Origin: Tepidisphaeraceae bacterium
GTDB taxonomy: Bacteria; Planctomycetota; Phycisphaerae; Tepidisphaerales; Tepidisphaeraceae
Direction of reading: 5' to 3'
Assembly (NCBI GenBank): GCA_047600945.1
Contig: JASGKC010000001.1
Location: 5,337,209 to 5,401,208 of the forward strand
Length of the DNA stretch: 64,000 nt
Of this stretch, positions 7,995 to 61,503 are shown piece after piece. A model generated the notes under the pieces. That model worked only from the letters and a program-made list of their open reading frames with translations. It ran no database searches and was not told the DNA's origin. The translations under genes and the position numbers were made by a program. How positions within the stretch are numbered: the first letter of the stretch is position 1; every line of letters begins with the position of its first letter.

Positions 7995-8999
7995 ATGAAC
8001 ATCCTCGTCGCCGGCGGCGCTGGTTACATCGGCTCGCACACCGTTCGTCAGCTCAAGCAGGCCGGGCACAATCCGATCGTGTTCGACAACTGCTCGCGCG
8101 GGCACGCGGTGATCACCGACATCCTCGATGTCGAATTCGTCCGCGGCGAACTCGACGACAAGGCCCTGCTCGTTGAAACCCTTCAGCAGCACCGCATCGA
8201 CGTCGTCATGCACTTCGCCGCGTACGCCTACGTGGGCGAGAGCGTCGAGAAGCCGCTGATGTACTACCACAACAACGTGGCCACCACGATCAACGTGCTG
8301 GAGGCGATGTCCGACGCGGGCGTGTCGCGGTTCGTGTTCTCCTCGACGTGCGCCACCTACGGCGACCCGGACGTCGTGCCGATCACCGAAAACGAGAAGA
8401 AGGCCCCGGTCAGCCCGTACGGCCGAAGCAAGTGGATGGTCGAGCAGATTCTCGATGACCACTGCAAGGCCAACAAGGACTTCTGCTACGCGGCCCTGCG
8501 CTACTTCAACGCCAGCGGATGTGCGGCCGACGGTCGGATCGGCGAAGACCACGACCCCGAATCGCATCTGATCCCGAACGTGCTGCTCGCGATCCTCGGG
8601 AAGAAGCCGGGCCTGACCGTCTTCGGCACCGACTACCCCACGCCCGACGGCACGAACGTCCGCGACTACATCCATGTGGAGGACCTCGCCGACGCGCACA
8701 TCAAGGCGGCCGAGAAGCTCGGCACGGGCTCGGGCCAGATGAAGCAGATCCTCGCGAACCTTGGCACGGGCATCGGCTTCAGCGTGAAGCAGATCATCGC
8801 GGCGGCGGAGAAGGTCACGGGCAAGAAAGTCCCCGTCACCTACGGCCCGCGCCGCGCGGGCGACGCGATCGCCCTCTACGCCAACCCGAAGTACGCCAAA
8901 GACGTGCTCGGCTGGGAAGCGAAGTACAAAGACCCCGAATCGATCATCCGCACCGCGTGGAGCTGGTTCCAGGCGCATCCGGACGGGTACAACGACTGA
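7995..8999 (+). CDS. galE: UDP-glucose 4-epimerase
   Basis: N-terminal Rossmann motif VAGGAGYIGSH, YxxxK active site region, length 334 aa typical of GalE. Confidence 0.9.
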   Translation: MNILVAGGAGYIGSHTVRQLKQAGHNPIVFDNCSRGHAVITDILDVEFVRGELDDKALLVETLQQHRIDVVMHFAAYAYVGESVEKPLMYYHNNVATTINVLEAMSDAGVSRFVFSSTCATYGDPDVVPITENEKKAPVSPYGRSKWMVEQILDDHCKANKDFCYAALRYFNASGCAADGRIGEDHDPESHLIPNVLLAILGKKPGLTVFGTDYPTPDGTNVRDYIHVEDLADAHIKAAEKLGTGSGQMKQILANLGTGIGFSVKQIIAAAEKVTGKKVPVTYGPRRAGDAIALYANPKYAKDVLGWEAKYKDPESIIRTAWSWFQAHPDGYND

Positions 9000-9026
9000 G
9001 CACCACGACAACCTAAAACTCGATCA

Positions 9027-9055
9027 AGCCCACCCCGCCGGGGTGGGCCTTTGTT
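9027..9055 (+). terminator. Rho-independent terminator after galE
   Basis: GCCCACCCCGCCGGGGTGGGC hairpin followed by CTTTGTT. Confidence 0.5.
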
Positions 9056-9079
9056 CATGCGGACCGAGATGCGAACGCG

Positions 9080-9508
9080 ATGTGTCGACGCGAGACGTTC
9101 GCGCAGCTCGATGATCGCAGCGCGGGTCTGTTGTCGCGTGTACAATCCTCCACGATGCCGCGTTGGGACGACCGTCAACCCTTGAACTACTTTCGACCGC
9201 TGAGCGTCGAAGAGCGCCAACCCTCGACGGCCGGCGTGGAGTTCGCTTGCGTGGTGCTGTCGATCGTGACGCTGCTGGTGACGCCGGGCGTTTGCCTGAT
9301 CGGGCAGATTCTGCCGTGGTGGTCGGTGATGCCGGTGCAGTGGGCGATCGCGGCCGCGACGATCGCCTGCGGCTGGGCCGCGCGACGCGGAGGCGACAAG
9401 CGTGAACCGCCCGCCCGCGCGTCCGATGTCGCGCTCGCCGTCGGCACGGTCGGCCTGGCCGTCCCGACGGCCGTGCTCCTGCTGTCGATCATGGCTCACG
9501 CGAGGTGA
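9080..9508 (+). CDS. Small hypothetical membrane protein
   Basis: Three hydrophobic helices (ACVVLSIVTLLVTPGVCLIGQIL, WAIAAATIACGWAA, LAVGTVGLAVPTAVLLLSIMA); no recognisable family. Confidence 0.3.
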   Translation: MCRRETFAQLDDRSAGLLSRVQSSTMPRWDDRQPLNYFRPLSVEERQPSTAGVEFACVVLSIVTLLVTPGVCLIGQILPWWSVMPVQWAIAAATIACGWAARRGGDKREPPARASDVALAVGTVGLAVPTAVLLLSIMAHAR

Positions 9509-9647
9509 GTTTCGAGATTCGGGACGCCATCGGCGTGATCGCCGCGTGTCTCCAATATCGGCATTACTCTGGCGCTCAAACGCAAGTTGCGAGCCGAACC
9601 GTCGGTCCGTCTCGCAACTTGAATCTCGAAACTTGAACCTCAAGCCC

Positions 9648-11231
9648 TCACGGCGTCGTCTGCGTCTCGCCCGCGGCGTTGGCGGCGAGGCTGGGCGGCG
9701 AGAAGTCGCCGAACACCTTCACGTTGACCTGCGTCGTGTCCACCACCGTGAAATTCTCGGGCTCGATGTACGTGATCCGGCGGGCTTCGTCCTTGACGAC
9801 TTTGCCCTTCACGCCGACGAACTTGCCGAGCATGTCGCCTGCCGACGTGTCGGCCGTGCGGACGTAGACCACGATCCGGCCCGTGCCCGGGTCGGTCAGG
9901 CGATAGAGCGTTCCGGGGCCGAACTGGAGGCTCGAGTTCGACAGCTTGCCCAGCGCCTTGTAGCGCGTGACGGCCGACTCCGCGAATTGCTGCTGAAGTT
10001 CCTGCTCCTCGGCTTTGAGTTCACGCGCCTTCGCGTCGCTCTCTTCTTTCGCCTTGCGCGTCGCGACGAAGTCGTCACGAATTTCCTTGCGCGTCTGTAG
10101 CGTGGCCAGACGGTTCGTGCCGATCTCGCGCCACACCGGGGCCAGGTTCTGCTCTTCGAGGACCGCCTGGTAGCTGGCGATCAGTTCTTCGATCGGCTGG
10201 GCCGTGATCTCCTGCTGGCCAGCGGCCTCGTATTGCTTTTCGAGGGCCTGCATCTTCAGGCTCAGGGCGGCCGCGTTCGCGCCGGTGCCGGTCTTCGCGA
10301 CCTGGGCCGGCTTCGTGCTCGGGACGGGCGTGTCGTTGATCGGCTTGAGCGTCGTCGGCTCGACACCGGTCGGCTTGCCCGTGTCGGTGACGATCACCGG
10401 CGGCGTGTTCGTCGTGCCAGCGCCGGTCGTCGTTCCCGTCTCGGGCGTCGTCGTCCCGGTCGTGCCCGGCGTGCCACCCGGAGAGGGTGTGCTCGTGCCG
10501 TCGCTCGACACGGTGAATCGACCGCCGTCGGGCGCCGGGGTCGTGCCCGTCGTGTCGGTCGGCGTGCCCCCGGTCGCGACCGGTTCCGGCGTGGGCGCGG
10601 GAGTTGGTGTCACCGGGTCAGGCGTCTTTGGCGTGACAGGTTCCGGAGCGGTCGGCGTCGGGTTGCTCGCGATCGGCGTCGCGCTCACCGGGTCGACGAA
10701 ACGCTTGTCGACATACAGGAACACGCCCGCGGGCGGTGCGATTTTGTAGAACTCATCGACCTCGCCGAGGATCTGCACGTCCGCGCCGACATCGAGCTTC
10801 ATCGGCACCTTGTGCTTGTTCGGCGTCAGCTCCGAGCCGACGCGCACGGTGGCGGCGTTGTGCGTCACGCGGCCGACGGTGCCGTCGCCACGCTTCTCAA
10901 CCAGCGCCTGCGGCACGAGGCAGAACGAGCCTTCCGGCGGAAGCACCTTGAGCCATTCGAACCGCATGCCGACGACGGTGAGCTTGTCGCCCTTGGTGAG
11001 CCGGCGGGTGGCGTAGTCGTTTTCGCTGGGACCGGAGCGGAGCAGCGCGCCGTCGGTGTTCACCGCGCCGGCGAAGCTGTTGCTGCCGGTTTCGATGGCC
11101 GGGGTGTCGTTTTCGCCCGGCGTCGCCTGGGCAAAGCTGAGGGTGGGCGCGAACGCCCAAATGGCAACCGCGGCCGCAACGACCGAAGCGCGACGGGCAA
11201 AACGGACCGGTGGAATCGAGGACGTGGTCAT
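9648..11231 (-). CDS. Secreted protein with two SH3-like domains, Pro/Thr-rich linker and C-terminal coiled coil
   Basis: Signal peptide MTTSSIPPVRFARRASVVAAAVAIWAFAPTLSFAQA; SH3b-like GDKLTVVGMRFEWLKV and VQILGEVDEFYKIAPPAGVFLYV; low-complexity PTPAPTPEP...TGTTTP region. Confidence 0.55.
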   Translation of the reverse strand: MTTSSIPPVRFARRASVVAAAVAIWAFAPTLSFAQATPGENDTPAIETGSNSFAGAVNTDGALLRSGPSENDYATRRLTKGDKLTVVGMRFEWLKVLPPEGSFCLVPQALVEKRGDGTVGRVTHNAATVRVGSELTPNKHKVPMKLDVGADVQILGEVDEFYKIAPPAGVFLYVDKRFVDPVSATPIASNPTPTAPEPVTPKTPDPVTPTPAPTPEPVATGGTPTDTTGTTPAPDGGRFTVSSDGTSTPSPGGTPGTTGTTTPETGTTTGAGTTNTPPVIVTDTGKPTGVEPTTLKPINDTPVPSTKPAQVAKTGTGANAAALSLKMQALEKQYEAAGQQEITAQPIEELIASYQAVLEEQNLAPVWREIGTNRLATLQTRKEIRDDFVATRKAKEESDAKARELKAEEQELQQQFAESAVTRYKALGKLSNSSLQFGPGTLYRLTDPGTGRIVVYVRTADTSAGDMLGKFVGVKGKVVKDEARRITYIEPENFTVVDTTQVNVKVFGDFSPPSLAANAAGETQTTP

Positions 11232-11689
11232 GGGCGGCACCTCCATGTGCACTGCGTGACAGTCGAATTCGACCGTCGTCAGAAGCCGGCTCGGACATCC
11301 GCCGGGCACAGGATCGGGAAAACCCGACCCCTCATCAGGGCCTCTGCGGCTCGTGTTTTACGAGGTTTGGTGAAAATGTAAAGCAGAAAGCATGCGGCCG
11401 AAGCGTCGAATGAAGTCCACTTTCCTTCTGAAAGAACACCGGTTCGCGGCTTCCGCTTCCACCTGCGGTTCGGCACCTCTTTGCTCAAGTCATTGTTCGA
11501 ACAGACTTACTGGCTTGGGTGGCCACGTCGGCACGTCTGCCAGCCTTGTGCTGAGATTTCTGTTGGGCGCAGGTCCGAGTGCGTCCCTGTGCCACCTTGC
11601 CCCTGATGATGGACAGATGGGACTGGAAGCCCACGGTTAATCCCGTCCGATGTCCCACGATTCCAGCCACCGCCCCCGTGGCCGGCTCA

Positions 11690-11905
11690 CTCCTCCCGGC
11701 CCAACTCCCGGCCCGGCCGACCTCTGCCGGCCGAACGGAGTGCTGACGTGTCATTTTTCATTCGGGGACATTTTGGGACATTTGGACCGCTCCACTTCGC
11801 CGTCCCATCGGACTCCTTTCAAATTGCCAAAGAGCAACGTCAACCCAGCAGTATGACAAGCGGGTCCGGTAGGCCGTCAAGAGAATTCCTTGTGGCGGTG
11901 GGCCA
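11690..11905 (+). other. Conserved intergenic element, copy 1 (paralog of 60280-60465)
   Basis: Shares blocks CGGCCGAACGGAGTGCTGACGTG (23/23), CGGGGACATTTTGGGACATT (20/20), TTGCCAAAGAGCA (13/13) and ATGACAAGYGGGTSCGG..GGCCGTCAAG with the second copy, in the same order and orientation. Confidence 0.4.
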
Positions 11906-12010
11906 GCTGCCGAATGAACTCGCCGCGCAGTGTGACATGAGCGCCCGGCCGTTGAATACTTGTGCCCCGACAACGGCTGCCGCCTTGACCCCCGCCGACT
12001 CCGACCGACG

Positions 12011-13111
12011 ATGCCGATCATGTCGCCCGATCTCCGCCTGCTGCTCGAACTTACCGCCGTCCCGACCGCACCGTTTCATGAACACCGCGTGATGGCGTTC
12101 ATCGACGCCTTTGCACGAGTCCGACGCTCGCTGTCCATCTCCCGGGATCGCTTCGGGAACACGCTGCTCGTCCGAAAAGGCTCGGCCGGCGAGAAACGCC
12201 CGCGGCTGGTCTATGTGGCTCACCTCGACCACCCCGGCTTCATCGTCGCGGAACAACTCGACACGAAGACCATCCGTTGCGACTTCCACGGCGGTGTGCT
12301 CGCGAAGCTGATGCTCGGCGCGAAGGTGCGATTCTTCGATGGAGCGAACGAAGTCACCGGCAAAGTGATCGATGCGAAAGACGACGCCGGTCGGGCTTCG
12401 TCGGCGACCGTGCGCGTGAGCAAGCCTGTGAAACCGGGCGCGTTCGGCATGTTCGACCTGACACCCGGCAAAATCGTCGGCCAGCGGTTCCACGCCCGCG
12501 TGTGCGACGACCTGGCCGGCGCGGCGTCGGCGCTGGCGACGCTAGACGCGCTAGCGAAGTCGCCCGCCAAATGCGACGTGGCCACCCTGCTCACGCGCGG
12601 CGAGGAACAAGGCTTCATCGGCGCGATCGCCAGCGTGAACGCGAGGCCGTCGCTGCTCCGCAAGACCGATCGGCTCATCAGCATCGAGTGCAGCGCCGAG
12701 CAACCCGTCGCGAAACAGGGCGAAGGCGTCGTCCTCCGCGTGGGCGACCGCACCAGCACGTTCAACAGCGCCTTCACCCGCTTCATCGGCGACGTCGGGA
12801 CCGACCTGGCGCAGAAGGACAAGCGGTTCAAATTCCAACGCGCCCTCATGCCCGGCGGCACCTGCGAGGCAACCGTCTTCGACGCCTGGGGCTACACGAC
12901 GGCGGCTGCGTGCGTGCCGTTGGGCAACTATCACAACATGAACAAGGTGCGCGGGCGCATCGAGGCGGAGAACGTGCACCTGGGCGACTGGCAGAACATG
13001 GTAAAGCTGTTCTTGGGATTGGCCCGACGCATCCACGAATTCGACGGCTCGCACGCGGCGCTGCGCGATCGGCTGACGAAACGGTTCAAGTCGTTCGAGC
13101 AGCTGCTGTGA
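12011..13111 (+). CDS. M42 family metallopeptidase (glutamyl aminopeptidase / FrvX-like)
   Basis: FHEHRVMAFIDAF and VYVAHLDHPGFIV motifs typical of the M42/M20 aminopeptidase fold; start chosen at ATG 12011. Confidence 0.65.
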   Translation: MPIMSPDLRLLLELTAVPTAPFHEHRVMAFIDAFARVRRSLSISRDRFGNTLLVRKGSAGEKRPRLVYVAHLDHPGFIVAEQLDTKTIRCDFHGGVLAKLMLGAKVRFFDGANEVTGKVIDAKDDAGRASSATVRVSKPVKPGAFGMFDLTPGKIVGQRFHARVCDDLAGAASALATLDALAKSPAKCDVATLLTRGEEQGFIGAIASVNARPSLLRKTDRLISIECSAEQPVAKQGEGVVLRVGDRTSTFNSAFTRFIGDVGTDLAQKDKRFKFQRALMPGGTCEATVFDAWGYTTAAACVPLGNYHNMNKVRGRIEAENVHLGDWQNMVKLFLGLARRIHEFDGSHAALRDRLTKRFKSFEQLL

Positions 13112-13146
13112 TGAATGCGTTGTCAGGGCGGCTCCGAAAACAAGCA

Positions 13147-13300
13147 CGGAGCACACAGAGAGCACAGAGGTCCCAGAGAAGGGCAACAAAAAGAAGATCG
13201 GAACAGTCGAGACGCCTTCGAGTATTTTGGCTTAACGCTATCGTCTTCCCTCTTCCGTCTATTCCTCTGTGCTCTCCGTGCTCTCGGTGTCCTCTGTGAT
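13147..13300. repeat. MITE-like inverted-repeat element, copy 2 (CACAGAG arms)
   Basis: CACGGAGCACACAGAGAGCACAGAGGTCCCAGAGAAGGG ... CCCTCTTCCGTCTATTCCTCTGTGCTCTCCGTGCTCTCGGTGTCCTCTGTG; between convergent gene ends. Confidence 0.45.
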
Positions 13301-13408
13301 CATCTTCGCATCACAGCACCAGCGACTTCGTCGCAGCGTGGCGACTCACCAGTGATGCGTCTGCTTCGTCTTCAATCGCAAATCGCAAATTGAAAATCGC
13401 AAATCCGC

Positions 13409-13627
13409 TCACGCCGGGTCGTACCCTTTCCCCCCGAACGGATGACACCGCGCGATGCGTTTGATTGCTTTCCACGCGCCGACGAATGGCCCGTACTTCT
13501 TCACCGCGTCGATCGCGTACTGCGAGCAGGTCGGCTGGAAGCGGCAATGCCCGACGTACAGCCGGCCGAGCGTGGCGCGGTAGGCGAGGACTCCGAAGAT
13601 CAGCAATCGCGAGAGCAAGGCGGGCAT
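13409..13627 (-). CDS. yidD: Membrane protein insertion efficiency factor YidD
   Basis: CRFQPTCSQYAIDAVKKYG and CHPFGGKGYDP signature of YidD; ~72 aa. Confidence 0.85.
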   Translation of the reverse strand: MPALLSRLLIFGVLAYRATLGRLYVGHCRFQPTCSQYAIDAVKKYGPFVGAWKAIKRIARCHPFGGKGYDPA

Positions 13628-13643
13628 CTTACACTCTGCCGCC

Positions 13644-15005
13644 ATGGCATCCGCACCGCTGCGTGGCGTTCACTTCGATCTCAAGGGAATGCCGCCGACG
13701 TTCGAACGATTGCTCGGCTGGATCGACCTGTGTGCCAGCCTCGGCTTTCAGTTCGTGCTGATGGAGTGGGAAGACGCGTTCCCGTGGACGCTCGACGCGG
13801 GCCTGCGGTGTGAAACCGCGTACTCTGCCGATCAGGTGCAGGCGATTCACGAACATTGCCGCGAGCGTGGCCTGCAAGTGATCCCGCTCGTGCAGAGCCT
13901 GGGGCATATGGAAACGCCGCTTTCACTCGATCGCTTCGCAAGCCTGCGCGAAATCCCGTATCGCTCCAGCGGCCTGAATCCGCTCGCGCCGGGCGCACGC
14001 GACCTCGTGCTGGCAATGGTCGACGAAGTGCTCGCAGCTTCGCCCGGCGTCACCCACTTTCACCTCGGCGGCGACGAGGCCTGGACGCTCGGCCAGCACC
14101 CTGACACGGCCGCTTTCGTGAAAACGCACGGCAAGGCGCAGCTTTACTGGCAGCACGTCGAACCGCTGCTGGACCACCTGCTCGCCCGCGGCGTGCGCCC
14201 GATCCTGTGGCACGACATGATGAGTTCGTGGGAGCCGGATTTGCTCGCGAAGCTCGCCGCGAAGGCGGACCTGATGTTCTGGGTGTACGAGCGCGACCCG
14301 CTGGGATCAACGGACGATCACTTCGGCAAGCCCGCGCTCGATCGCTTCCAGCAGGCGGACGTCACACTGTGGGGCGCGGGCTGCTTCCGCGGTGCGGGCG
14401 GGTCGGATCGCGACCTGCCGAATGGCGACGTGCTCGCGTCCAACGCGCTCGCGTGGACGCGCGTGGCGTCGCAGTACGACCTGCACGGCATCGTCGCGAC
14501 CGGCTGGGCCCGCTACGCGACGCATCAGTTGCAGTGTGAGCCGTTCGATGGGGCGATGGACTCGCTGGCGCGGGTTGCATCGATCCTGCGCGACAGCGTC
14601 GATTCGGGCGTCGATCGATCCATCGAACGGCTTTCCGAATTGGGCGAGCGCGAGCGGTTCATCGCCTGTCGGGACGCGCTACGCGAACTGAGCGTCGCTC
14701 GTGACGCCGGCTGGCGCTGGTTGCGGTCGTTGCATCAGTTGCTGGTAACGATGGCCGACGACCCACGGCGACGATCCGGCTGCGTGGAGATCGAGTACGC
14801 GAAGCTGACCCGGCAGGCGATCGCCCGCTGCGAGCGGGCCGGTGAGGCGATGGCCAAGGCGTTCGACGGTATGACCGATCCGATCTGGGTGAAGCGGTAT
14901 CTACACGAACGGATCGCACCGTTGAAAGAACAATTGGCGACGCTTCAGGAACGCGGTCGATCCATCAATCCGGATGCGTGGGACGACTTCGCGCGGACCG
15001 CATGA
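13644..15005 (+). CDS. Glycoside hydrolase family 20-like protein (beta-N-acetylhexosaminidase catalytic domain)
   Basis: TIM-barrel GH20-like motifs FHLGGDEAW and ILWHDM; N-terminal region with conserved R and W residues. Confidence 0.55.
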   Translation: MASAPLRGVHFDLKGMPPTFERLLGWIDLCASLGFQFVLMEWEDAFPWTLDAGLRCETAYSADQVQAIHEHCRERGLQVIPLVQSLGHMETPLSLDRFASLREIPYRSSGLNPLAPGARDLVLAMVDEVLAASPGVTHFHLGGDEAWTLGQHPDTAAFVKTHGKAQLYWQHVEPLLDHLLARGVRPILWHDMMSSWEPDLLAKLAAKADLMFWVYERDPLGSTDDHFGKPALDRFQQADVTLWGAGCFRGAGGSDRDLPNGDVLASNALAWTRVASQYDLHGIVATGWARYATHQLQCEPFDGAMDSLARVASILRDSVDSGVDRSIERLSELGERERFIACRDALRELSVARDAGWRWLRSLHQLLVTMADDPRRRSGCVEIEYAKLTRQAIARCERAGEAMAKAFDGMTDPIWVKRYLHERIAPLKEQLATLQERGRSINPDAWDDFARTA

Positions 15006-53944: not shown

Positions 53945-54199
53945 ATGGGCGATGTCGCCAAAGATCATCTGGTCGTGCTCCAGATCGAAGGCATGCACTG
54001 CCACCGCTGCGAACGCGCGATCCAACAGGCATTGGGCGGCTTCCCCGGCGTACGCGAAGTCGAAGTCGACTTCCTGTCGGGCCAAGCCTCCGTCCTCCAC
54101 GAACCGGGCAGCCCCACCGTCCAAGAGATGATGGACGCCGTCAACGACGCCGGCTACAAGGCGACGGGGTATGTGGAGAAGCAACTCGATGTCGCCTGA
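53945..54199 (+). CDS. Heavy-metal-associated (HMA) domain protein
   Basis: Ferredoxin-like beta-alpha-beta-beta-alpha-beta pattern with GMHCHRCE metal-binding loop variant. Confidence 0.6.
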   Translation: MGDVAKDHLVVLQIEGMHCHRCERAIQQALGGFPGVREVEVDFLSGQASVLHEPGSPTVQEMMDAVNDAGYKATGYVEKQLDVA

Positions 54200-54300
54200 T
54201 CGCTTGATTTCGAATTGCGACATGCGAATTTCGAATTGAGTTCGCAGACGCATCGCTCGTTCCTCAATTCGCAATTCGAAATCCGCAATTCGCAATGCCC
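54190..54300. repeat. AT-rich tandem/inverted repeat island (TTCGAATT / AATTCGCAAT units); probable terminator
   Basis: CGAATTTCGAATTGAG...CTCAATTCGCAATTCGAAATCCGCAATTCGCAAT; related AATCGCAAAT units at 13355-13400. Confidence 0.4.
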
Positions 54301-54801
54301 CGTCGTTCACTCCCTGTCGTCCCCTGGTATAGCGAAGGCCTCTCCTTCACTTGCACCCAGTGCGGCAACTGCTGCACGGGCGGGCCGGGGTATGTGTGGA
54401 TGAGCGATGACGAAGTTCGCATCCTCGCCGACCACCTGAAGCTCAGCGTCGAAGAGACCGTGAAAAAGCATTGCCGGCTCATCAACGGCCGGCTCAGCCT
54501 GAAGGAACGCAAGACGCCCAAGGGCCTGTACGACTGCGTCTTCCTGATCGACCTGCCGACCACCGACGGCTCCGTGAAACGCGGCTGCGGCATCTACCCG
54601 GTGCGACCGCTCCAGTGCCGGACTTGGCCCTTCTGGGATGGGAACCTCGAAACCCGCGAGAGCTGGCAACGCGCCAAGCGCACCTGTCCCGGCCTCGACA
54701 AGGGCAAGCCGTTCACGGTCGAGCAGATCATCGCCCTGCGCGATGCCGAGGTCTGGCCCGGCACCGAGCAGACGCCCACGTCGGCGAAAACGAAAGCATG
54801 A
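54295..54801 (+). CDS. YkgJ family cysteine-cluster protein (UPF0153)
   Basis: CTQCGNCCTGGPG and CPGL Cys cluster typical of the YkgJ/FliB-like family. Confidence 0.75.
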   Translation: MPRRSLPVVPWYSEGLSFTCTQCGNCCTGGPGYVWMSDDEVRILADHLKLSVEETVKKHCRLINGRLSLKERKTPKGLYDCVFLIDLPTTDGSVKRGCGIYPVRPLQCRTWPFWDGNLETRESWQRAKRTCPGLDKGKPFTVEQIIALRDAEVWPGTEQTPTSAKTKA

Positions 54802-54967
54802 TTCGACGTGACTCGGCGCGTTCGGCATAATCGCGTGACATGCCCGGGGAACGTCCAGTGTCGCCGCTCGTGCTGGCCGAGTTGTATGACTCCGCCGATG
54901 CGTCGTTCCTGACGCGACTCCTCACGCCTCGACTCGATTTGCGTCCGATGGTCGGCCTGATCGAGCG

Positions 54968-56523
54968 ATGGAAGAAAGACAACAGCGCCTGGCGCGCCAG
55001 CTCAAGCTGTCGTACGCAACACGACCGCCTGCCGCGCAGCGCGAGCCGCTGATCTTCAAGCGGCTCTTCAAGCACGCCGACGCCACCGGCGATCACGAGT
55101 TGATGGCCGCGTTCCTTGTCGCGACGGATCGGCTGATCCGCCGCAAGCGTCGTAAACGCGTCCGCTGGGCGCAGGGAACGCTCGAAACGAGCGAAGTCCT
55201 CCGCGTCGCTTCGAACTACAACGGCCTGTTCCGATCGAACGCGACGAATCACTATGTCCGCCGTCGCGCGTGGCGGCACTTCCGTCGGCTGGGCTTTCGC
55301 GACCCGGCCACCTATCGCACGCACGTCGCCGCGGCTCTGGCACGCTACGACGATGCCGACGTCCGCGCCGGCGAGAACCTGCTCGACTGCTGGGGCCTGA
55401 TGCACGCCTGCTTCGGCAAGAGCAAGGAGATCGCCTTCGACGCCCGGCACACGAACATCGCGCCCAGTGGCGTCTTCGCGAACCTGTCGGCCGCACCGAT
55501 GTTCGAGCGGCACTGGGCCGACGCGGCCGGGCTGCCTGTACTGCTCGACCTGCTCCTGGCCGCACGATGCAGGCCCGTGCGCGTGTGGGCCATCCAACTG
55601 CTGAAGCGTCTGCACAAGCCGGCGCTGTGCGCGTCGATGCGACCCTGATCGTGAAACTGATCGACCACGAAGACGCCGATGTCGCTGCGTTCGCGGCCGA
55701 GTTGTTGGCGGACGCCGATGCGGTGTCGTCGTTCCCGATCCCGACGTGGCTCGCCCTGCTCGCCACCCGCAACCCGGCCGTCACGGCGACGGTCGCTGAC
55801 GCCTTCCGCAAGCACGTCGATTTCGCCCGCGTGACCGCGACGCAGGCCATCGAACTGGCGCTGCGTGCACCGGTGCCGGTCGCGGCGCTCGGGCTCGACA
55901 TCCTGTTGACGCGCGAGTTTCGCACACCGGCCGATCGTGCGTTGCTTGCGCGGTTGAGCGCAGCCGAGTGTGCCGCACTCGCCGATGCCATCGCCCGCTT
56001 CGCCCTGCCCAAGCTGAACCGTCCGGGCGGATACGACATCGACGACCTCACAGGCTTCTTCGACAGCCGATTCCGGACGATGCGCAGCGGCGCCTTCGCT
56101 GCACTCACCCCACAATCGCCGGCCGACACCGATCCGGCCTTCTGGTCTCGGCTTTTCGAATCGCCTTACGACGACGTGCGCACTGAGCTCGTCGCGCGGT
56201 TGAAGACGCGATCGAACTTGCCAGGCGCGTCGAGCGATTCACTCGCGTCGCTCTGGACCAACGTGCTGCTGAGCATCCACCGAGGTGGCCGGGCGAAGCT
56301 GTCGGCGCTACGCCAGATCAGCGATCACATCCGCGCGAACCCGTCGACCACACGCATCCTTCTGCCGGTGCTGGCGATCGCGATCCGCTCGGTGCGCGCC
56401 CCCGAAGCCCGGCACGGCCTGGCCGCGATCGTGGCCGCGACGCAGCGCGAGCCGTCGCTGCTGACCCGCGTGGCCGAGGCGTTTCCCGACCTGCAACTCG
56501 ACGCCACCGTGGGGGTGCCATGA
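54968..56523 (+). CDS. Hypothetical alpha-helical (HEAT-like repeat) protein; frame interrupted by an apparent -1 shift near 55620-55650
   Basis: Two consecutive sense-looking frames (54968-55648 and 55650-56523); downstream half has HEAT-like helical repeats; stop overlaps next start (ATGA at 56520). Confidence 0.45.
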
Positions 56524-58226
56524 TCGAGACGTTCGTTTATGCCGGATCGAGCGGCGTGGTCGATCGCCCCGAGGGCCGATCGATCCGGCTGGCGCCAAAC
56601 CTCGTGCGCGAGCCGGTCGCGTTCGACGCGGAGTTGCGCCATCCGCTTCGTTTTCGCGAAGCGATTAGCGCGTTGCACGACGTTGTGGTGAGCGATCTCC
56701 GCTTCAAGAAGAAGGACAAGACGGCATACAAGGCGTGGCTGAAGGAGCAGGCGAATCGTGACGCCGCCGTCCGACGCGACGCCTGGCGGGCGGCCAACGA
56801 ACAACTGCAAGCCGCCCACGCAACGCCGTTGCCGCCGGAGTTCGAGGCCGACTACACCGCCGCCCGCAAGCTGTACTGGTCGGCCCGCGACCAGTACAGC
56901 GATTACCTCCGCAAGCACGACCCCGCGCTCTGGCGCACGCTGATGCCGAGCGACCCAGTCATTACCGTCGCGAATGACGTCGTGTTCTTCGAGTGCTTCT
57001 CGAAGGACGAATCCGCCTACGGCTGCCTCTACACGCGCCGCGCCGACGCGTTCGGCCCCAGCAGCACGTTGCAGGTCGGCACCACGAACGTCGACTATTC
57101 CGAAGCGCTGTACGAGCAGTTCCAGACGCTGCGGACGTATCGCCCGACGAAGTTCAGCCTCGACCCGGAAGGTTTTTCGGTTCAGCGTGCAGCGCAGGAA
57201 ACGCCGGCGCATCGCGAAGAAAAGATCGACTTGCCCAACACGTGGCTGAGCGGCTTCATGAAGCTGCAAGCCGCCATGACGATGCCGACGACGCGCGTGC
57301 CGCTGTCGCGCGAGTGCGTCTATTCGCTGCTGGCGTTTTTGAAGCGGAATATCGCCAAGCGCAGCCCGCGGGCGCTTCGGTTCGAACTCGATCCGGGCAA
57401 GCCGGCCCGACTGGTGCTGGAGCCGTGGGAGAAGGCATTCCAAGTCGTCGGCCCCGCGTACGCCGGCCCGCGCACGCCGGCGATTCGCGTGTGGGGCACG
57501 CGCCGGCTGCTCGTGCTGGCGCGGCTGCTGCCGCTGGCGGAATCGATCGAAGTGCACTTGCTCGCGACGGGCCTGCCCAGCTTCTGGGTGGTTCGCATGG
57601 GTGAGATGACGTTCGTGCTGGGCCTGTCGGGCTGGACGACGAACGACTGGTCGCGTGGCTCGGCGCTCGACCTGCTTGAACCGCCCCGCGCGATCAGCCG
57701 GGAACTCGTCGGGGCGACCGTGCGGTCGCTGAAGACACGTCGCTCGGCCACGCTCGCCGAGGTACAGGCCGACATGGGCGAGGGCGATCCGTTCCTCGTC
57801 GGCCAGGCGCTGCGTCACCTGGCCGAGATGGGACAGGTCGTGTTCGACCTGACGACCGGCGTCTATCGCTACCGGCAGATTCTCACCGTGCCCGAGGCCG
57901 AGACGCTGCTGGCGCACGAGAGCGAGGAAGTCGCCGCGGCGCGGAAGCTGGTCGCGGAGCGGCGGTTTGAGCTGGTCGATCGCCAGGACGGGCCGAGCCT
58001 GTCGCGGGTAATCATCGGAAAGGTCGAAAGCACGCCGGTGGAGATCCTGGTCGATCCGGACGACCGCATCCGGCGCGGCAAGTGCCTGTGCAGTTATTTC
58101 AAGCAGTACGGTTTGAGGAACGGCCCGTGTCGTCACATGATCGCCCTGCGTTGGGGCCTGAGCGTGACGGGCTTGGCGGCATTGCAGCAAAGCGAAGCGT
58201 TCAATCGAATGCTGGGTCGAAGTTGA
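56520..58226 (+). CDS. SWIM zinc-finger domain protein
   Basis: C-terminal CxC...CxH SWIM motif RGKCLCSYFKQYGLRNGPCRHMIALRWGL; 568 aa. Confidence 0.7.
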   Translation: MIETFVYAGSSGVVDRPEGRSIRLAPNLVREPVAFDAELRHPLRFREAISALHDVVVSDLRFKKKDKTAYKAWLKEQANRDAAVRRDAWRAANEQLQAAHATPLPPEFEADYTAARKLYWSARDQYSDYLRKHDPALWRTLMPSDPVITVANDVVFFECFSKDESAYGCLYTRRADAFGPSSTLQVGTTNVDYSEALYEQFQTLRTYRPTKFSLDPEGFSVQRAAQETPAHREEKIDLPNTWLSGFMKLQAAMTMPTTRVPLSRECVYSLLAFLKRNIAKRSPRALRFELDPGKPARLVLEPWEKAFQVVGPAYAGPRTPAIRVWGTRRLLVLARLLPLAESIEVHLLATGLPSFWVVRMGEMTFVLGLSGWTTNDWSRGSALDLLEPPRAISRELVGATVRSLKTRRSATLAEVQADMGEGDPFLVGQALRHLAEMGQVVFDLTTGVYRYRQILTVPEAETLLAHESEEVAAARKLVAERRFELVDRQDGPSLSRVIIGKVESTPVEILVDPDDRIRRGKCLCSYFKQYGLRNGPCRHMIALRWGLSVTGLAALQQSEAFNRMLGRS

Positions 58227-58234
58227 GAAGGAAA

Positions 58235-58535
58235 GGAGCCTCGAATCCGCCGACGGTCGGCATGCTGAAGCGGGGTGGTGCGAGCGTAAGCCCGCACGCG
58301 TCCTGAGACTCTCTCCGCGATGTTCCGTCGCGGGTGCAGCTTGCCTCCCCATTGCGTCCCCAAGGCCGTTGTTCGTTCGGGCACCGTGCGAGCTATCGCA
58401 GGTGCCCATGAACAACCCAAGGGTTGCCCCTGCGATAGCTCGCACGGTGCCCATGGTGAACGACCTTGGTCCGAAGGTTGAAGTCAGGATGGCCGCGTGG
58501 ATGCGGGCCGATCCGTCGGTGGATTCGATGTTCCT
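58235..58535 (+). ncRNA. Candidate retron-type non-coding RNA (msr/msd-like): a1/a2 inverted repeats flanking a long hairpin
   Basis: a1 AGGAGCCTCGAATCCGCCGACGG (58235-58257) vs a2 CCGTCGGTGGATTCGATGTTCCT (58513-58535): 20/23 complementary, 2 of 3 mismatches G-U compatible; internal perfect 24-bp stem GGGCACCGTGCGAGCTATCGCAGG (58379-58402) / CCTGCGATAGCTCGCACGGTGCCC (58429-58452). Confidence 0.45.
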
Positions 58536-58544
58536 TTAAGGCCC

Positions 58545-60226
58545 GTGCCGAACGATGACTTCAACAACCTCGTCGCCCTGGTGTCGGCCGTGTTCGGGGT
58601 CGGCGCCGTCATTCTCATTGCAACCGCGTTCCGCAAGCGCCAGCAGCCGCCGAAGCCGCAGCACCCCATCGGAGGCGATCAGTCGGGGCGTCAACTCCGG
58701 TCGATAGCGCCGCCCGCGGGTCGACCCGTCGTCGTCGTTCCGCCGCGCCGGCCAATCCAGCGCATCGAGAAGACGCTCGACCTCACCGCCGCGCAGTTCG
58801 CGCCACTAACCGACGCGCAGGTCCGCGAGCGGGCGAGCACCACGCCGTTCACCGGCTTTTTCACGTTCGGCCGGCGCGATCGCATTCCGTCGCCGGCCGA
58901 CCCGCGCACGAAGCTGATCGACCAGGCAATGGTCGGCCACGGCCTCGTGACGGCCGACGAACTCGTCCGCATCCACGAGATCGGCCAGAAGTACGACGAA
59001 CTCCGGCCCGACTACTCGACCGTACATGCAGTCGCGCAGCAAGCCGTTGAAGCAGATCGCGAGGCCCGCGCGAGATCTGCGCCGAGAAGAAGCTCGCCGC
59101 CGAGCAGCGCAAGCGCGAGCATGCCGAGCGCGTCGCCCGGAATCGCGCAACCGACATCATCCACCTCGGTCGAGGCGTGTCGGCCGGCCTTGCCGACCGC
59201 ACGAGCGACTTCGATAAGCTGCGTGCCGCCGGCCTGCCCGAACTGTCGACGCCCGCCGACCTCGCCGCCGCGTTCGGCCTCCCGATCCCGCGTCTGCGCT
59301 TCCTCGCCTACCACGCCGAGGCCAGCACCGTCAGCCACTACGTGCAGTTCATGGTGCCTAAGAAAAGCGGCGGCGAGCGCCTGCTCAGCGCGCCGCACAA
59401 GCACTTGGCCACGGCGCAGCAGTGGGTGCTTGATGCAATCCTCCGCAAGCTGCCCGTCCACGACGCCGCGCACGGCTTTGTCAACGGTCGATCGATCCTC
59501 ACGAACGCCAAGCCGCACGTCGGCCGCGCGGTCGTCGTCAACTGCGACCTCACCGACTTCTTCCCGTCGATCACCGTGCATCGCGTGATCGGCTTCTTCC
59601 GCCACCTCGGCTACTCGCCGGCCGTCGCGACGGTCTTGGCGCTGCTCGTCACCGAGTGCCCGCGCCGCAAAGCGCGCTTCGCGGGCAAGACCTGGCACAT
59701 CGCGGTCGGCCCGCGCGGGCTGCCGCAAGGCGCGTGCACCAGCCCGGCACTGTCGAACCTGATCGCACGCCGGCTCGACTCGCGCCTCAGCGGCATCACG
59801 CGCAAGCTCGGCTGGACCTACACGCGCTACGCCGACGACCTGACGTTCTCCTGCAACACAGCCACGCCCTCGGTCGGCTACCTGCTGGCGCGCGTCCGGC
59901 ACATCACCGGCGACGAAGGCTTTGCGATCAATGAGAAGAAGACGCGTGTCCTCAAGCGATCGGCGCGACAGGCGGTCACGGGCATCGTCGTGAACGTCGA
60001 GCCGAGCGTGCCGCGGAAGACGCGGCGCCGGCTCCGGGCGATCCTGCATCACGCGAAACACGAAGGCCTTGCCACCCAGCAGCGACCGGGTCGTGCGAAC
60101 ATCACCGGCTGGGCGAACGGCATGACCGGCTTCATCGCGATGGTGAATCCACGGCACGCGCTACCGTTACGCATGGCGCTCGATGCGGTGAAGTCGGATG
60201 ACCGATCCGACGGCCATGTCCCATAG
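58545..60226 (+). CDS. Retron-type reverse transcriptase with ~175-aa N-terminal extension containing a TM helix; frame interrupted by an apparent -1 shift near 59050-59085
   Basis: RT motifs: FMVPKKSGGERLL (motif 1), NCDLTDFFPSIT (2), LPQGACTSPALSNL (4), YTRYADDLTF (YxDD, 5), QAVTGIVVN (VTG region typical of retron RTs). The upstream frame encodes NLVALVSAVFGVGAVILIATAF TM plus a ~150-aa unknown domain that joins the RT frame as ...EADREARA|REICAEKKLAAEQRK... Confidence 0.7.
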
Positions 60227-60279
60227 CCCCGGCGGAATGCACGTCGAATCGGCCAACAGGGATCGGCCGAATTCCCGGC

Positions 60280-60465
60280 CGGGCCGCGAGTTGTCGGCCG
60301 AACGGAGTGCTGACGTGCGATTTTGAAATCGGGGACATTTTGGGACATTCGGGCCACCCCATTCGGCCGGGGCCGGAGGACGCGCATTCAGGTTGCCAAA
60401 GAGCAGACTGCGACCTCGCATCATGACAAGTGGGTGCGGGTGGCCGTCAAGGAAAATCCGTGGTG
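60280..60465 (+). other. Conserved intergenic element, copy 2 (paralog of 11690-11905), immediately downstream of the RT gene
   Basis: Same ordered blocks as copy 1 (CGGCCGAACGGAGTGCTGACGTG; CGGGGACATTTTGGGACATT; TTGCCAAAGAGCA; ATGACAAGTGGGTGCGGGTGGCCGTCAAGG). Confidence 0.4.
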
Positions 60466-60813
60466 TGAGCATCTGCTCGAGGACTTCCGTAAGTCTGTGG
60501 CATGGGCGTCTCGCCCATGGACTCGCGCAGCGAGCACGCGGCGTGAGCCGCGTTCAGCAGAAGGAGAGCATCAAGGTGCTCGCGATTGCCGGTCGCTGGA
60601 TGGTTGTCTTTTGTTGAATCGAGCTGCGCTCGATGCCGGCTGCGCCGGTCCACGGGCGGGGACGCCCGTGCCACGACACACGTGTGGGGCCCCCGTTGGA
60701 TCGATGTGCAACCCAAACAAGATCAGGCGAGTCCCGTACCCAGGGGACTCGCCTGATGAGAAACCTTCCTCCGCATCGTTCGACGTGAACGAATAGGCTG
60801 TGGGGAACGAAGA

Positions 60814-61503
60814 TTACTTGCGGGCCATCTTGCGGCGGGCGCGGTAGGCGACCACCAGGGCGGCCGGGGCGGCGAACACGGCCGCGGGCAGCGGGACGAC
60901 CGCCGTTTCCACGCCGACGTTCGCGACCTTCGCGTCGATCAGGGCCGTCGATTCCGTGCTGTCGGTGTACGCGCTGACCAGCCCGTCGACTTCGACCTTC
61001 ACATTCTTCCAACCGGCCGGCAGGTTGATCGCGGTGCCGCCGTCCCACTTGCCTTCGAGCGAGCTGTGGGTCGCGGCCGGCAGGCCGTTGTAGGTGAAGT
61101 TCGAGCTGAGGACCTGCATCGTGTCGAGGTTCGTGACACGCAGCTGACCCGAGCTGTCGACCTCACCGCGGCCGAGGATGCTGTAGTCGCCCAGCAGGCT
61201 CGACGTGATGCTCTTGATCACGTGGTTCGGCTTGGCGTTGAGGATGACCGAGAGCGTATCGCCGACCTGCTGGCTGAGCGTCTGGCCCTGCGGGGCGACG
61301 GCGCTGAAGTTCGAGGGGAACAGCGCGAAGCCGTTCGGCAGGCCGATGCCGTCGCTGAACTTGCCAGTCTGGCTCTGGCCTTGCTGATAGTCGAACGTCG
61401 GCTGCGAGCCGCTGGGCGAGGCCCAGTCGACCGGGGCGGCAAAGGCCGAGGTCGAAGCACCGATCACGGCGACGGCGGCAAGAAGCGTGCTGCGGAAACT
61501 CAT
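60814..61503 (-). CDS. PEP-CTERM sorting domain protein
   Basis: Signal peptide MSFRSTLLAAVAVIGASTSAFA; C-terminal VPLPAAVFAAPAALVVAYRARRK PEP-CTERM-like anchor; N-terminus resembles the PEP-CTERM protein at 52137-52958. Confidence 0.65.
   Translation of the reverse strand: MSFRSTLLAAVAVIGASTSAFAAPVDWASPSGSQPTFDYQQGQSQTGKFSDGIGLPNGFALFPSNFSAVAPQGQTLSQQVGDTLSVILNAKPNHVIKSITSSLLGDYSILGRGEVDSSGQLRVTNLDTMQVLSSNFTYNGLPAATHSSLEGKWDGGTAINLPAGWKNVKVEVDGLVSAYTDSTESTALIDAKVANVGVETAVVPLPAAVFAAPAALVVAYRARRKMARK

Follow-up and report, generated by a model that had tools for sequence, protein, structure and literature searches.

A pair of HEAT/ARM-like and SWIM zinc-finger genes in a Tepidisphaeraceae bacterium is very probably the accessory part of a type XIII retron

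The window, that is, the whole stretch of 64,000 nucleotides (nt) analyzed here, belongs to the genome of a Tepidisphaeraceae bacterium of the phylum Planctomycetota (GenBank assembly GCA_047600945.1, contig JASGKC010000001.1, positions 5,337,209 to 5,401,208) and harbors a unit of four elements on its forward strand (+). These are, in this order, a gene for a protein with HEAT/ARM-like repeats (HEAT-like gene), a gene for a protein with a SWIM zinc finger, a non-coding RNA (ncRNA) of the msr-msd kind and a gene for a retron reverse transcriptase (RT). Their features, numbered from the first base of the window, are the following.

54840-56523, + strand: HEAT/ARM-like accessory gene, about 561 amino acids (aa) if repaired, delimited by tblastn with intact homologs and by the PADLOC model HEAT-ARM_XIII
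56520-58226, + strand: SWIM accessory gene, intact, 568 aa, from the list of open reading frames (ORFs) and the PADLOC model SWIM_XIII
58083-58136, + strand: C-terminal SWIM motif CxCx12CxH, CLCSYFKQYGLRNGPCRH, residues 522-539 of the SWIM protein, from the sequence
58232-58537, + strand: msr-msd ncRNA, predicted from an inverted repeat, folding and an alignment of 37 sequences
58232-58256, + strand: outer a1 arm, pairing with a2 (25-nt arms, 88% complementary)
58299-58491, + strand: conserved ncRNA core, from CUGAGAC through the msr and msd hairpins to GAAGUCAG (covariance model R1, 177 bits, E 1e-41)
58307, + strand: predicted branching (priming) guanosine in the conserved GAGAC, directly 3' of the a1/a2 stem at its inner end
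58360-58469, + strand: msd template hairpin, with a conserved base (CCAAGGCCGTT / AACGACCTTGG) and a conserved apical loop
58497-60226, + strand: retron RT gene, N-terminally extended, about 576 aa if repaired, start at GTG 58497 or GTG 58545, from RVT_1 and the PADLOC model RT_XIII
58513-58537, + strand: outer a2 arm, pairing with a1
59504-59518, 59828-59839 and 59975-59983, + strand: RT motifs NAKPH, YADD and VTG, respectively, from the sequence

A preliminary description of this DNA raised the possibility that the SWIM/HEAT pair serves the RT system as an accessory or effector part and is not an unrelated neighbor. This proposal is borne out by dedicated PADLOC models, by linkage in both directions and by the architecture published by Mestre et al. 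2020, and the pair very probably represents the standard accessory genes of a type XIII retron, to whose family the classic Myxococcus retron Mx162 belongs. The top matches of the three proteins in PADLOC-DB are all type XIII models, namely HEAT-ARM_XIII (E 1.2e-153), SWIM_XIII (E 1.5e-176) and RT_XIII (E 4e-156). The repaired HEAT-like protein aligns over its full length to HEAT-ARM_XIII, SWIM_XIII covers residues 5-545 of the SWIM protein, and RT_XIII scores 519 bits against 345 bits for the runner-up PADLOC model. Pfam and NCBIfam are of little help for the accessory pair, the former giving HEAT_2 at E 0.044 and SWIM at E 0.0095 and the latter zero matches for either protein; it was the PADLOC models alone that resolved both proteins.

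The published description of the type agrees with what lies in the window. According to Mestre et al. 2020 (PMC7736814), type XIII RTs form clade 10 (Mx162, Mx65, Sa163, Ne144) and are accompanied by a protein that combines a DEDE motif and a winged helix with the SWIM motif CxCx12CxH at its C-terminus, and whose gene usually follows directly on one for a HEAT/ARM-like repeat protein; the type has its own kind of ncRNA and shows signs of vertical inheritance. A preprint (Toro 2026) counts type XIII among the retrons of Planctomycetota, with 26 of 143 candidates. The system is already catalogued and known in this phylum, and the locus adds another member to it.

The association of these genes is not peculiar to the window. 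A scan of species-representative genomes with the SWIM alignment detected relatives in 468 genomes, from which the best 80 loci, plus two found earlier, were taken for comparison. The best 80 all belong to Planctomycetota or Verrucomicrobiota (50-57% identity). Of 68 testable loci, 65 have the HEAT-like gene directly upstream of SWIM and in the same orientation; an RT lies downstream of SWIM in 61 of 68, and both are present in 53 of 60. The first two assemblies inspected carry the same trio among different neighbors, with a protein of 561-589 aa, a 4-nt overlap, a SWIM protein of 566-568 aa, a gap of about 300 nt and an RT of 563-564 aa. For the reverse direction, metagenome contigs were scanned with the RT alignment and the loci were verified by hidden Markov models (HMMs); of 39 testable loci, 33 have SWIM upstream, and for a HEAT-like ORF the count is 28 of 33. 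The pair is thus recurrently tied to a retron RT, at about 85-95% both ways, and the opposite pattern, in which the pair and the RT would live apart, was not found. None of the genes that flank the trio in the window recurs in the 82 other SWIM loci. Among 2.9 million viral contigs only one partial match was obtained, at a contig end, which gives no sign of an association with phages.

The HEAT-like, SWIM and RT genes and the ncRNA are therefore co-inherited across Planctomycetota and Verrucomicrobiota. In the intact ortholog L001, the HEAT-like gene occupies 8319-10004, SWIM 10001-11701, the ncRNA 11711-12028 and the RT gene 12009-13700, and among cultured bacteria the trio is carried by Chthoniobacter flavus Ellin428 (L067), Gemmata algarum (L057) and Aeoliella straminimaris (L046). 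In a neighbor-joining tree of 80 SWIM proteins, all 23 sequences of Verrucomicrobiota form one clade, and clustering is also seen for the sequences of the Tepidisphaerales type and of the Gemmata type; the test is rough, with labels taken from record titles only, and the agreement of the tree with phylum labels is as expected for vertical inheritance.

Incomplete loci amount to about 10-15% within the examined flanks of 6-8 kb. Neither RT nor ncRNA is found at L013, L049, L052, L054 and L064, and L065 and L083 have an ncRNA and no RT. SWIM and RT occur without a HEAT-like gene at L043, RT without SWIM at L109, L134, L148 and L161, and RT with a HEAT-like gene and no SWIM at L118 and L121. Some RT-ncRNA units therefore stand without SWIM, and HEAT plus SWIM, or SWIM alone, are also found.

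The preliminary description placed the end of the SWIM gene 9 nt before the a1 repeat of the ncRNA; the closeness and the shared strand stand, and the gap is corrected to 5 nt, with a1 starting at 58232. The 319-nt ncRNA region has a minimum free energy of -184 kcal/mol and a folding z score of -9.65 against shuffles, and the a1/a2 stem is predicted to extend inward, with C58303-A58306 paired to U58484-G58487. The alignment of 37 sequences reveals a core shared by both phyla, which consists of CUGAGAC, the msr hairpin CUGCGGCGUUCCGCCGCGG, CCCCAAGGCCGUUGUUCGU, a variable stem, GGUGAACGACCUUGGUCC and GAAGUCAG. RNAalifold assigns 45 base pairs to it, 29 of them with compensatory changes. In this alignment 90.5% of the cells are paired, against 72.5% in shuffled alignments and 32-49% when the partners are slid, and changes on both sides of a pair occur in 319 cells against 104 in shuffles, a value that none of 500 shuffles reached. 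The predicted ncRNA structure is hence backed by compensatory base changes. With the covariance model of the core, the element is found again in almost all of the loci kept out of its construction (100-205 bits), and also just upstream of the RT in metagenome loci. The layout repeats after the SWIM gene in most loci, where the a1 and a2 sequences are lineage-specific yet still complementary. The upper msd stem in the window has 27 bp (58379-58405 / 58426-58452) and is variable, with changes on both sides in 18 of the 19 pairs of helix 5.

G58307 would be the branch point, because it is the first base past the inner end of the a1/a2 stem in the conserved GAGAC, which is where retrons have their priming guanosine; the position rule, and the contexts CAGC/GAGC of Mx162/Mx65, are given by Simon et al. 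2019 (PMC6868368). The product would be a multicopy single-stranded DNA (msDNA) of about 120-130 nt, with a template running from about 58483 back to about 58350. A scan of 54000-61000 against Rfam 15 at E<=1 gave no retron RNA family, only chance matches to miRNA and sRNA families; among them, mir-275 (58375-58457, - strand, 26.8 bits against a gathering score of 56) is merely the long msd hairpin.

The ncRNA also varies in place and in number. When it was sought solely downstream of SWIM, about 13 loci were missed, and the covariance model put their ncRNA between the HEAT-like and SWIM genes, as in L038 (7741-7929), L048 (2194-2381), L059 (7747-7934), L065 (7735-7922), L071 (7747-7933), L074 (7652-7837) and L078 (7690-7877). 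These loci lie in one branch of the SWIM tree, labeled Gemmataceae/Gemmatales, Pirellulaceae or Planctomyces; they have a gap of 250-340 nt between HEAT-like and SWIM genes in place of the 4-nt overlap, and the SWIM gene separates the ncRNA from the RT. The window has a single ncRNA copy, and about ten related loci carry two or three tandem copies per single RT. Two copies are found in L005 (9846-10037 and 10201-10392), L032 (10820-11020 and 11123-11323), L035 (372-559 and 634-821), L040 (9702-9889 and 9972-10160), L082 (9840-10030 and 10202-10392), L083 (7373-7565 and 7652-7843) and L057, and three in L069. The tandem copies are 65-89% identical; most pairs are near-identical in the msr core and the msd base, and diverge in the upper msd stem, with compensatory changes. 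One RT may thus make several msDNA species from tandem cassettes.

The RT is assigned to the retron class, and to its type XIII group, by its motifs and the RT_XIII match. Pfam RVT_1 is detected at E 4.7e-20, and the closest solved structures are retron RTs (Ec86, E 1.9e-40). An extended N-terminus, such as the one predicted here, was described for Mx162-type RTs by Simon et al. 2019 (PMC6868368). At the RT N-terminus of the window (58560-58630, FNNLVALVSAVFGVGAVILIATAF) there is a hydrophobic, transmembrane-like helix, which is likewise present in L001 and L002, both judged by eye, and in L004-L007, L067, L070 and L079. It occurs mostly in Tepidisphaerales-type relatives, and a 19-residue Kyte-Doolittle mean of >=1.8 is reached in 7 of 60 scanned loci. 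Many other RTs of the PVC superphylum (here Planctomycetota and Verrucomicrobiota) start with a MGLFDWLxRLFGG-like motif.

The SWIM protein, identical to the NCBI protein QM770_23820, carries at its C-terminus the CxC..CxH motif noticed in the preliminary description, here refined to CxCx12CxH. The Pfam SWIM model is weak on the window protein alone, yet it matches 23 of 24 homologs. The preliminary description also had the stop of the HEAT-like ORF overlap the SWIM start; the ATGA is present at 56520-56523, whereas 54968-56523 is not a single ORF. Such a 4-nt overlap (ATGA or GTGA) is not due to chance, because it is kept in 46 of 60 related loci, and it marks the two genes as translationally coupled, as judged from the sequence. 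The acidic residues D145, D153, E158 and D192 do not vary among 24 homologs, in which E233/E234 are at least 90% conserved (DNA 56952-57221). They compose the motif D145-x7-D153-x4-E158-x33-D192-x40-E233, with spacings 1-3 residues above the Dx7[D]x4Ex30-32Dx37E that Mestre et al. 2020 gave for the type XIII SWIM protein. The structure model of the protein and a fold search with it further predict a winged-helix domain upstream of the SWIM motif, in agreement with the definition of the type.

The structure model has a mean predicted local distance difference test (pLDDT) score of 69.5, with 75-90 for residues 250-370, 53-83 for residues 150-220 and about 80-90 for the winged helix and the SWIM domain. 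When this model of moderate confidence was searched with Foldseek, the first 50 matches were clamps (E 6e-7 to 2e-5), and the model sets the conserved acidic residues of the DEDE motif in the clamp-like domain. The SWIM protein is accordingly predicted to have a PCNA-like two-domain clamp fold, which is a lead rather than a result. In the literature searched, no link between retrons and clamps was found.

The HEAT-like region appears in the ORF list as two ORFs in different frames (54968-55648 and 55270-56523). Three-frame translation and tblastn with intact homologs spread its homology over three frames, 54840-54992 (frame 0), 54992-55627 (frame 2) and 55630-56505 (frame 1), with two apparent 1-nt deletions near 54992 and 55628; position 54968 is ruled out as the start, as homology already begins at ATG 54840. 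Intact homologs have 560-590 aa. The HEAT-like protein of the source genome has no 100% match in the protein collection, which fits an annotation as pseudogene. An AlphaFold2 model of an intact homolog (P0121, pLDDT 87.9) predicts an alpha-solenoid plus one beta hairpin, for which the fold search returned PP2A PR65 at the top, followed by SF3b155, CAND1, AP2 and importins. The WGR-like N-terminal domain is absent from the protein of about 561 aa, and the PADLOC model WGR_XIII (973 positions) aligns to it only via the repeat part, positions 245-557. Mestre et al. 2020 place the WGR-like form, which is the majority, in cluster 216_1 and allow HEAT/ARM partners without WGR (clusters 259, 1688, 3262 and 216_2); since the definition admits them, the WGR-less partner does not bar the locus from type XIII. 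In distant metagenome loci (L126-L164, RT 41-50% identical) the ORF upstream of SWIM spans about 830-1100 codons from stop to stop and matches the HEAT-like profile weakly (30-85 bits); these long ORFs are probably the WGR plus HEAT/ARM form of cluster 216_1. Directly before the RT of the same loci, the ncRNA model still reaches 20-43 bits.

Two further features lie upstream of the unit.

54295-54801, + strand: ykgJ-like ORF (Pfam CxxCxxCC PF03692, E 1.2e-8), 38 nt upstream of the HEAT-like gene
54803-54831, + strand: sigma-70-like promoter candidate TCGACG-17-CATAAT, the sole promoter-like site in 54200-60800, where 0.5 is expected by chance

The ykgJ-like gene had been drawn into the same organization by the preliminary description, a proposal that has to be withdrawn: it is absent within 8 kb of SWIM in all 82 other SWIM loci and has no PADLOC match, and it is thus excluded from the retron operon as a chance neighbor. 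The promoter candidate sits within the 38 nt that separate the ykgJ-like stop from the HEAT-like start and is tentatively taken as the operon promoter, on the weak evidence of its sequence and with promoter rules uncertain for Planctomycetota. The same sigma-70-like search found no promoter-like site in the SWIM-RT gap.

Compared with the named type XIII retrons (Retron-Mxa1/Mx162, Retron-Mxa2/Mx65, Retron-Sau1/Sa163 and Retron-Nex2/Ne144), the locus has the same three protein families by dedicated HMMs. As in those retrons, the SWIM protein has CxCx12CxH, a winged helix and the acidic DEDE residues, and its gene is directly preceded by a HEAT/ARM-like gene. Likewise shared are the extended N-terminus of the RT and its motifs NAxxH, VTG and YADD, the a1/a2 arms and long msd hairpin of the msr-msd ncRNA, and a largely vertical inheritance. 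The context of the predicted priming guanosine, GAGAC, is close to the GAGC of Mx65. Unlike the named retrons, it is hosted by a metagenome-assembled genome (MAG) of Planctomycetota and not by a myxobacterium, its RT and those of Tepidisphaerales-type relatives have the hydrophobic transmembrane-like N-terminal helix, and its HEAT-like and RT genes are frameshifted in this copy. The HEAT/ARM partner is of the short form (about 561 aa) and lacks the WGR-like domain of Mestre cluster 216_1, and the DEDE spacings are slightly longer than the published ones (33 and about 40 residues).

With the retrons Eco1/Ec86 (II-A), Eco7/Ec78 (I-A), Eco8 and Eco2, the locus shares a retron RT, an a1/a2 stem, an msd hairpin, accessory genes in the same operon and the general model of an RT-msDNA that restrains an effector. 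The accessory proteins of the window are, however, outside the effector families NDT, PtuAB and OLD/Toprim and have no obviously toxic enzymatic domain that can be recognized, their genes lie upstream of the ncRNA, and type XIII is without a reported defense phenotype in the literature searched. As for DNA sliding clamps (PCNA, Rad9-Hus1-Rad1, the bacterial beta clamp and herpesvirus UL44/UL42), the SWIM protein has no detectable sequence similarity to them and adds a long helical insertion (about residues 42-141) and the C-terminal winged-helix and SWIM domains, so that the model suggests a resemblance in fold and not membership in the clamp family. Other bacterial SWIM proteins (e.g. partners of SNF2 helicases) and the eukaryotic MuDR/FAR1/ZSWIM proteins have in common with it the C-terminal CxCxnCxH zinc finger, whereas the rest of the protein and its partners (HEAT/ARM, retron RT and ncRNA) are specific to type XIII. 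Near the locus, the ORF list of the window shows no SNF2 or VWA/MoxR partner.

By analogy with the retrons studied, the unit would be transcribed as one operon, and the RT would bind the folded ncRNA and prime DNA synthesis from the 2'-OH of G58307, where the a1/a2 stem has its inner end, to copy the msd template into the msDNA of about 120-130 nt, which would fold into a long hairpin. The SWIM protein, with its predicted clamp-like fold, winged helix and zinc finger, would hold the msDNA hairpin, the RT or both, and the HEAT/ARM solenoid would act as a scaffold coupling the SWIM protein, the msDNA and the RT, in a complex that may sense a perturbation. That the accessory pair binds the RT-msDNA complex is, by the same analogy, rather likely. 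The output of the system could be anti-phage abortive infection, as in other retrons, for which the analogy gives somewhat less than an even chance, and a vertically inherited, domesticated cellular role is doubtful. Equally tentative is a reading that joins all these elements, in which SWIM would be a PCNA-like clamp gripping the msDNA hairpin, and not a transposase-like nuclease, with the HEAT/ARM protein as its adaptor to the RT, in a vertically inherited module of the PVC lineage that can hold two or three msr-msd cassettes differing solely in the upper msd stem, for several msDNA species from one RT, and whose SWIM gene outlives the RT. That SWIM alone is a toxin neutralized by RT-msDNA is argued against by the frequent state in which SWIM is intact and the RT is broken or absent.

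Several points weigh against the interpretation developed so far. In the retron literature searched, no experiment on the function of a type XIII retron was found. An RT is missing within 8 kb in about 10% of SWIM loci, and five of seven of these are also without ncRNA, so the pair can persist without an RT in cis. The branching guanosine and the msDNA length are derived from position alone, and two of the three retron genes are frameshifted in the window, where the system is possibly non-working. As to the clamp, the model is of moderate confidence in its mean pLDDT and in the first clamp-like domain (53-83), sequence and profile searches of the PDB with the SWIM protein gave only chance matches (BAF and corticosteroid-binding globulin) and no link to clamps, and Mestre et al. 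interpreted this region as a DEDE nuclease akin to transposases.

The frameshifts themselves admit more than one explanation. The RT gene is found by tblastn in two frames (58758-59063 and 59069-60172), with an apparent 1-nt deletion at about 59064-59068, so that, of three such deletions (54992, 55628 and about 59064-59068), two lie in the HEAT-like gene and one in the RT gene, with SWIM left intact. All three act as one missing base in G+C-rich sequence, with zero in-frame stops. This copy is, with about equal probability, a recently inactivated retron or a local mis-assembly. Errors of assembly or base calling, which would mean that both genes are intact in the organism and the retron is fully functional, come close to an even chance. 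The SWIM protein lies on a MAG contig of 5.5 Mb, suggesting a long-read assembly, the lesions are all single-base deletions in G+C-rich runs (e.g. tgg[g]cgcg at 54992), and all the catalytic and conserved residues are retained. Moreover, HEAT-like or RT genes split in the same manner, with SWIM intact, are found in the MAG loci L013, L039 and L052, whose contig names suggest long-read assemblies. However, a crude frame-plot by an HMM of third-codon-position G+C content, over about 51 kb of coding sequence, found every other region of the window covered by a single open frame and none needing a frame change. The chance that three random errors all land within the 5-kb retron is about 1e-3, and the eight hits counted over the window and the three MAG loci all fall in HEAT-like or RT genes, with SWIM spared throughout.

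Next comes the explanation that the PVC module is a domesticated, vertically inherited retron with a cellular function, whose SWIM and HEAT-like proteins may work independently of the RT as well; this is possible but unlikely. In its favor, SWIM proteins are 50-73% identical across two phyla in a tree that follows phylum labels, the core sequence of the ncRNA is kept across phyla, and 2.9 million viral contigs gave a single partial match. No neighbor from the window recurs by the trio, and the ykgJ-like gene, the sole flanking gene scanned against PADLOC, has no match there; HEAT plus SWIM or SWIM-only loci exist without an RT, and Mestre et al. themselves raise the possibility of a domesticated function for type XIII. 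Against it, every retron type experimentally tested so far acts in phage defense, the hypervariable upper msd stem and the several cassettes per locus look more like an arms race than housekeeping, and the genomic position of the trio is not syntenic.

Somewhat less probable still is that the SWIM protein is a DEDE-type nuclease derived from a transposase, a toxic retron effector rather than a clamp-like DNA-binding adaptor. Mestre et al. 2020 noted that the DEDE motif resembles those of IS256/Mutator transposases and placed type XIII among the retrons associated with nucleases, and the (nearly) invariant conservation of five acidic residues suggests a metal-binding or catalytic site. But the spacings in the window, 33 and about 40 residues, differ from the 30-32 and 37 of the published motif, and conserved acidic residues are equally compatible with contacts to protein or nucleic acid.

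That the HEAT/SWIM pair is an unrelated neighbor merely adjoining a retron is very improbable: it could appeal to the roughly 10% of SWIM loci without an RT within 8 kb and to the 6 of 39 RT loci without SWIM upstream, but it is contradicted by a linkage of about 85-95% in both directions in loci where the flanking genes of the window do not recur, and dedicated type XIII models match the pair, the 4-nt overlap is conserved and the ncRNA begins 5 nt past the SWIM stop. Programmed ribosomal frameshifting as a regulator of the HEAT-like and RT proteins, for which the shared sign and size of the three shifts, one missing base each, might speak, is rejected, since the HEAT-like homologs listed, 120 proteins of which nearly all have 550-600 aa, and the RTs of L001, L002 and most other loci are uninterrupted, and no slippery heptamer was seen at the three shift sites on reading the sequence.

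The gene pair is therefore explained, very probably, by a catalogued retron system that PADLOC-type tools detect. Type XIII is the family of the very first retrons discovered, Mx162 and Mx65, yet the literature searched gave no biological function for it. Handles on this family are offered by the intact orthologous loci (L001 and L002), the ncRNA covariance model and the predicted priming guanosine, as well as by the contrast between a clamp-like DNA binder and a DEDE nuclease, which is testable for the SWIM protein, and by the natural variants with tandem cassettes or without an RT. The clamp-like fold, the tandem ncRNA cassettes, the variants in ncRNA position and the RT-less HEAT/SWIM loci may be of interest to specialists. 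If the tentative joint reading were true, with a SWIM clamp gripping the msDNA hairpin, type XIII retrons would have a mode of action unlike that of the toxin-antitoxin retrons studied so far.

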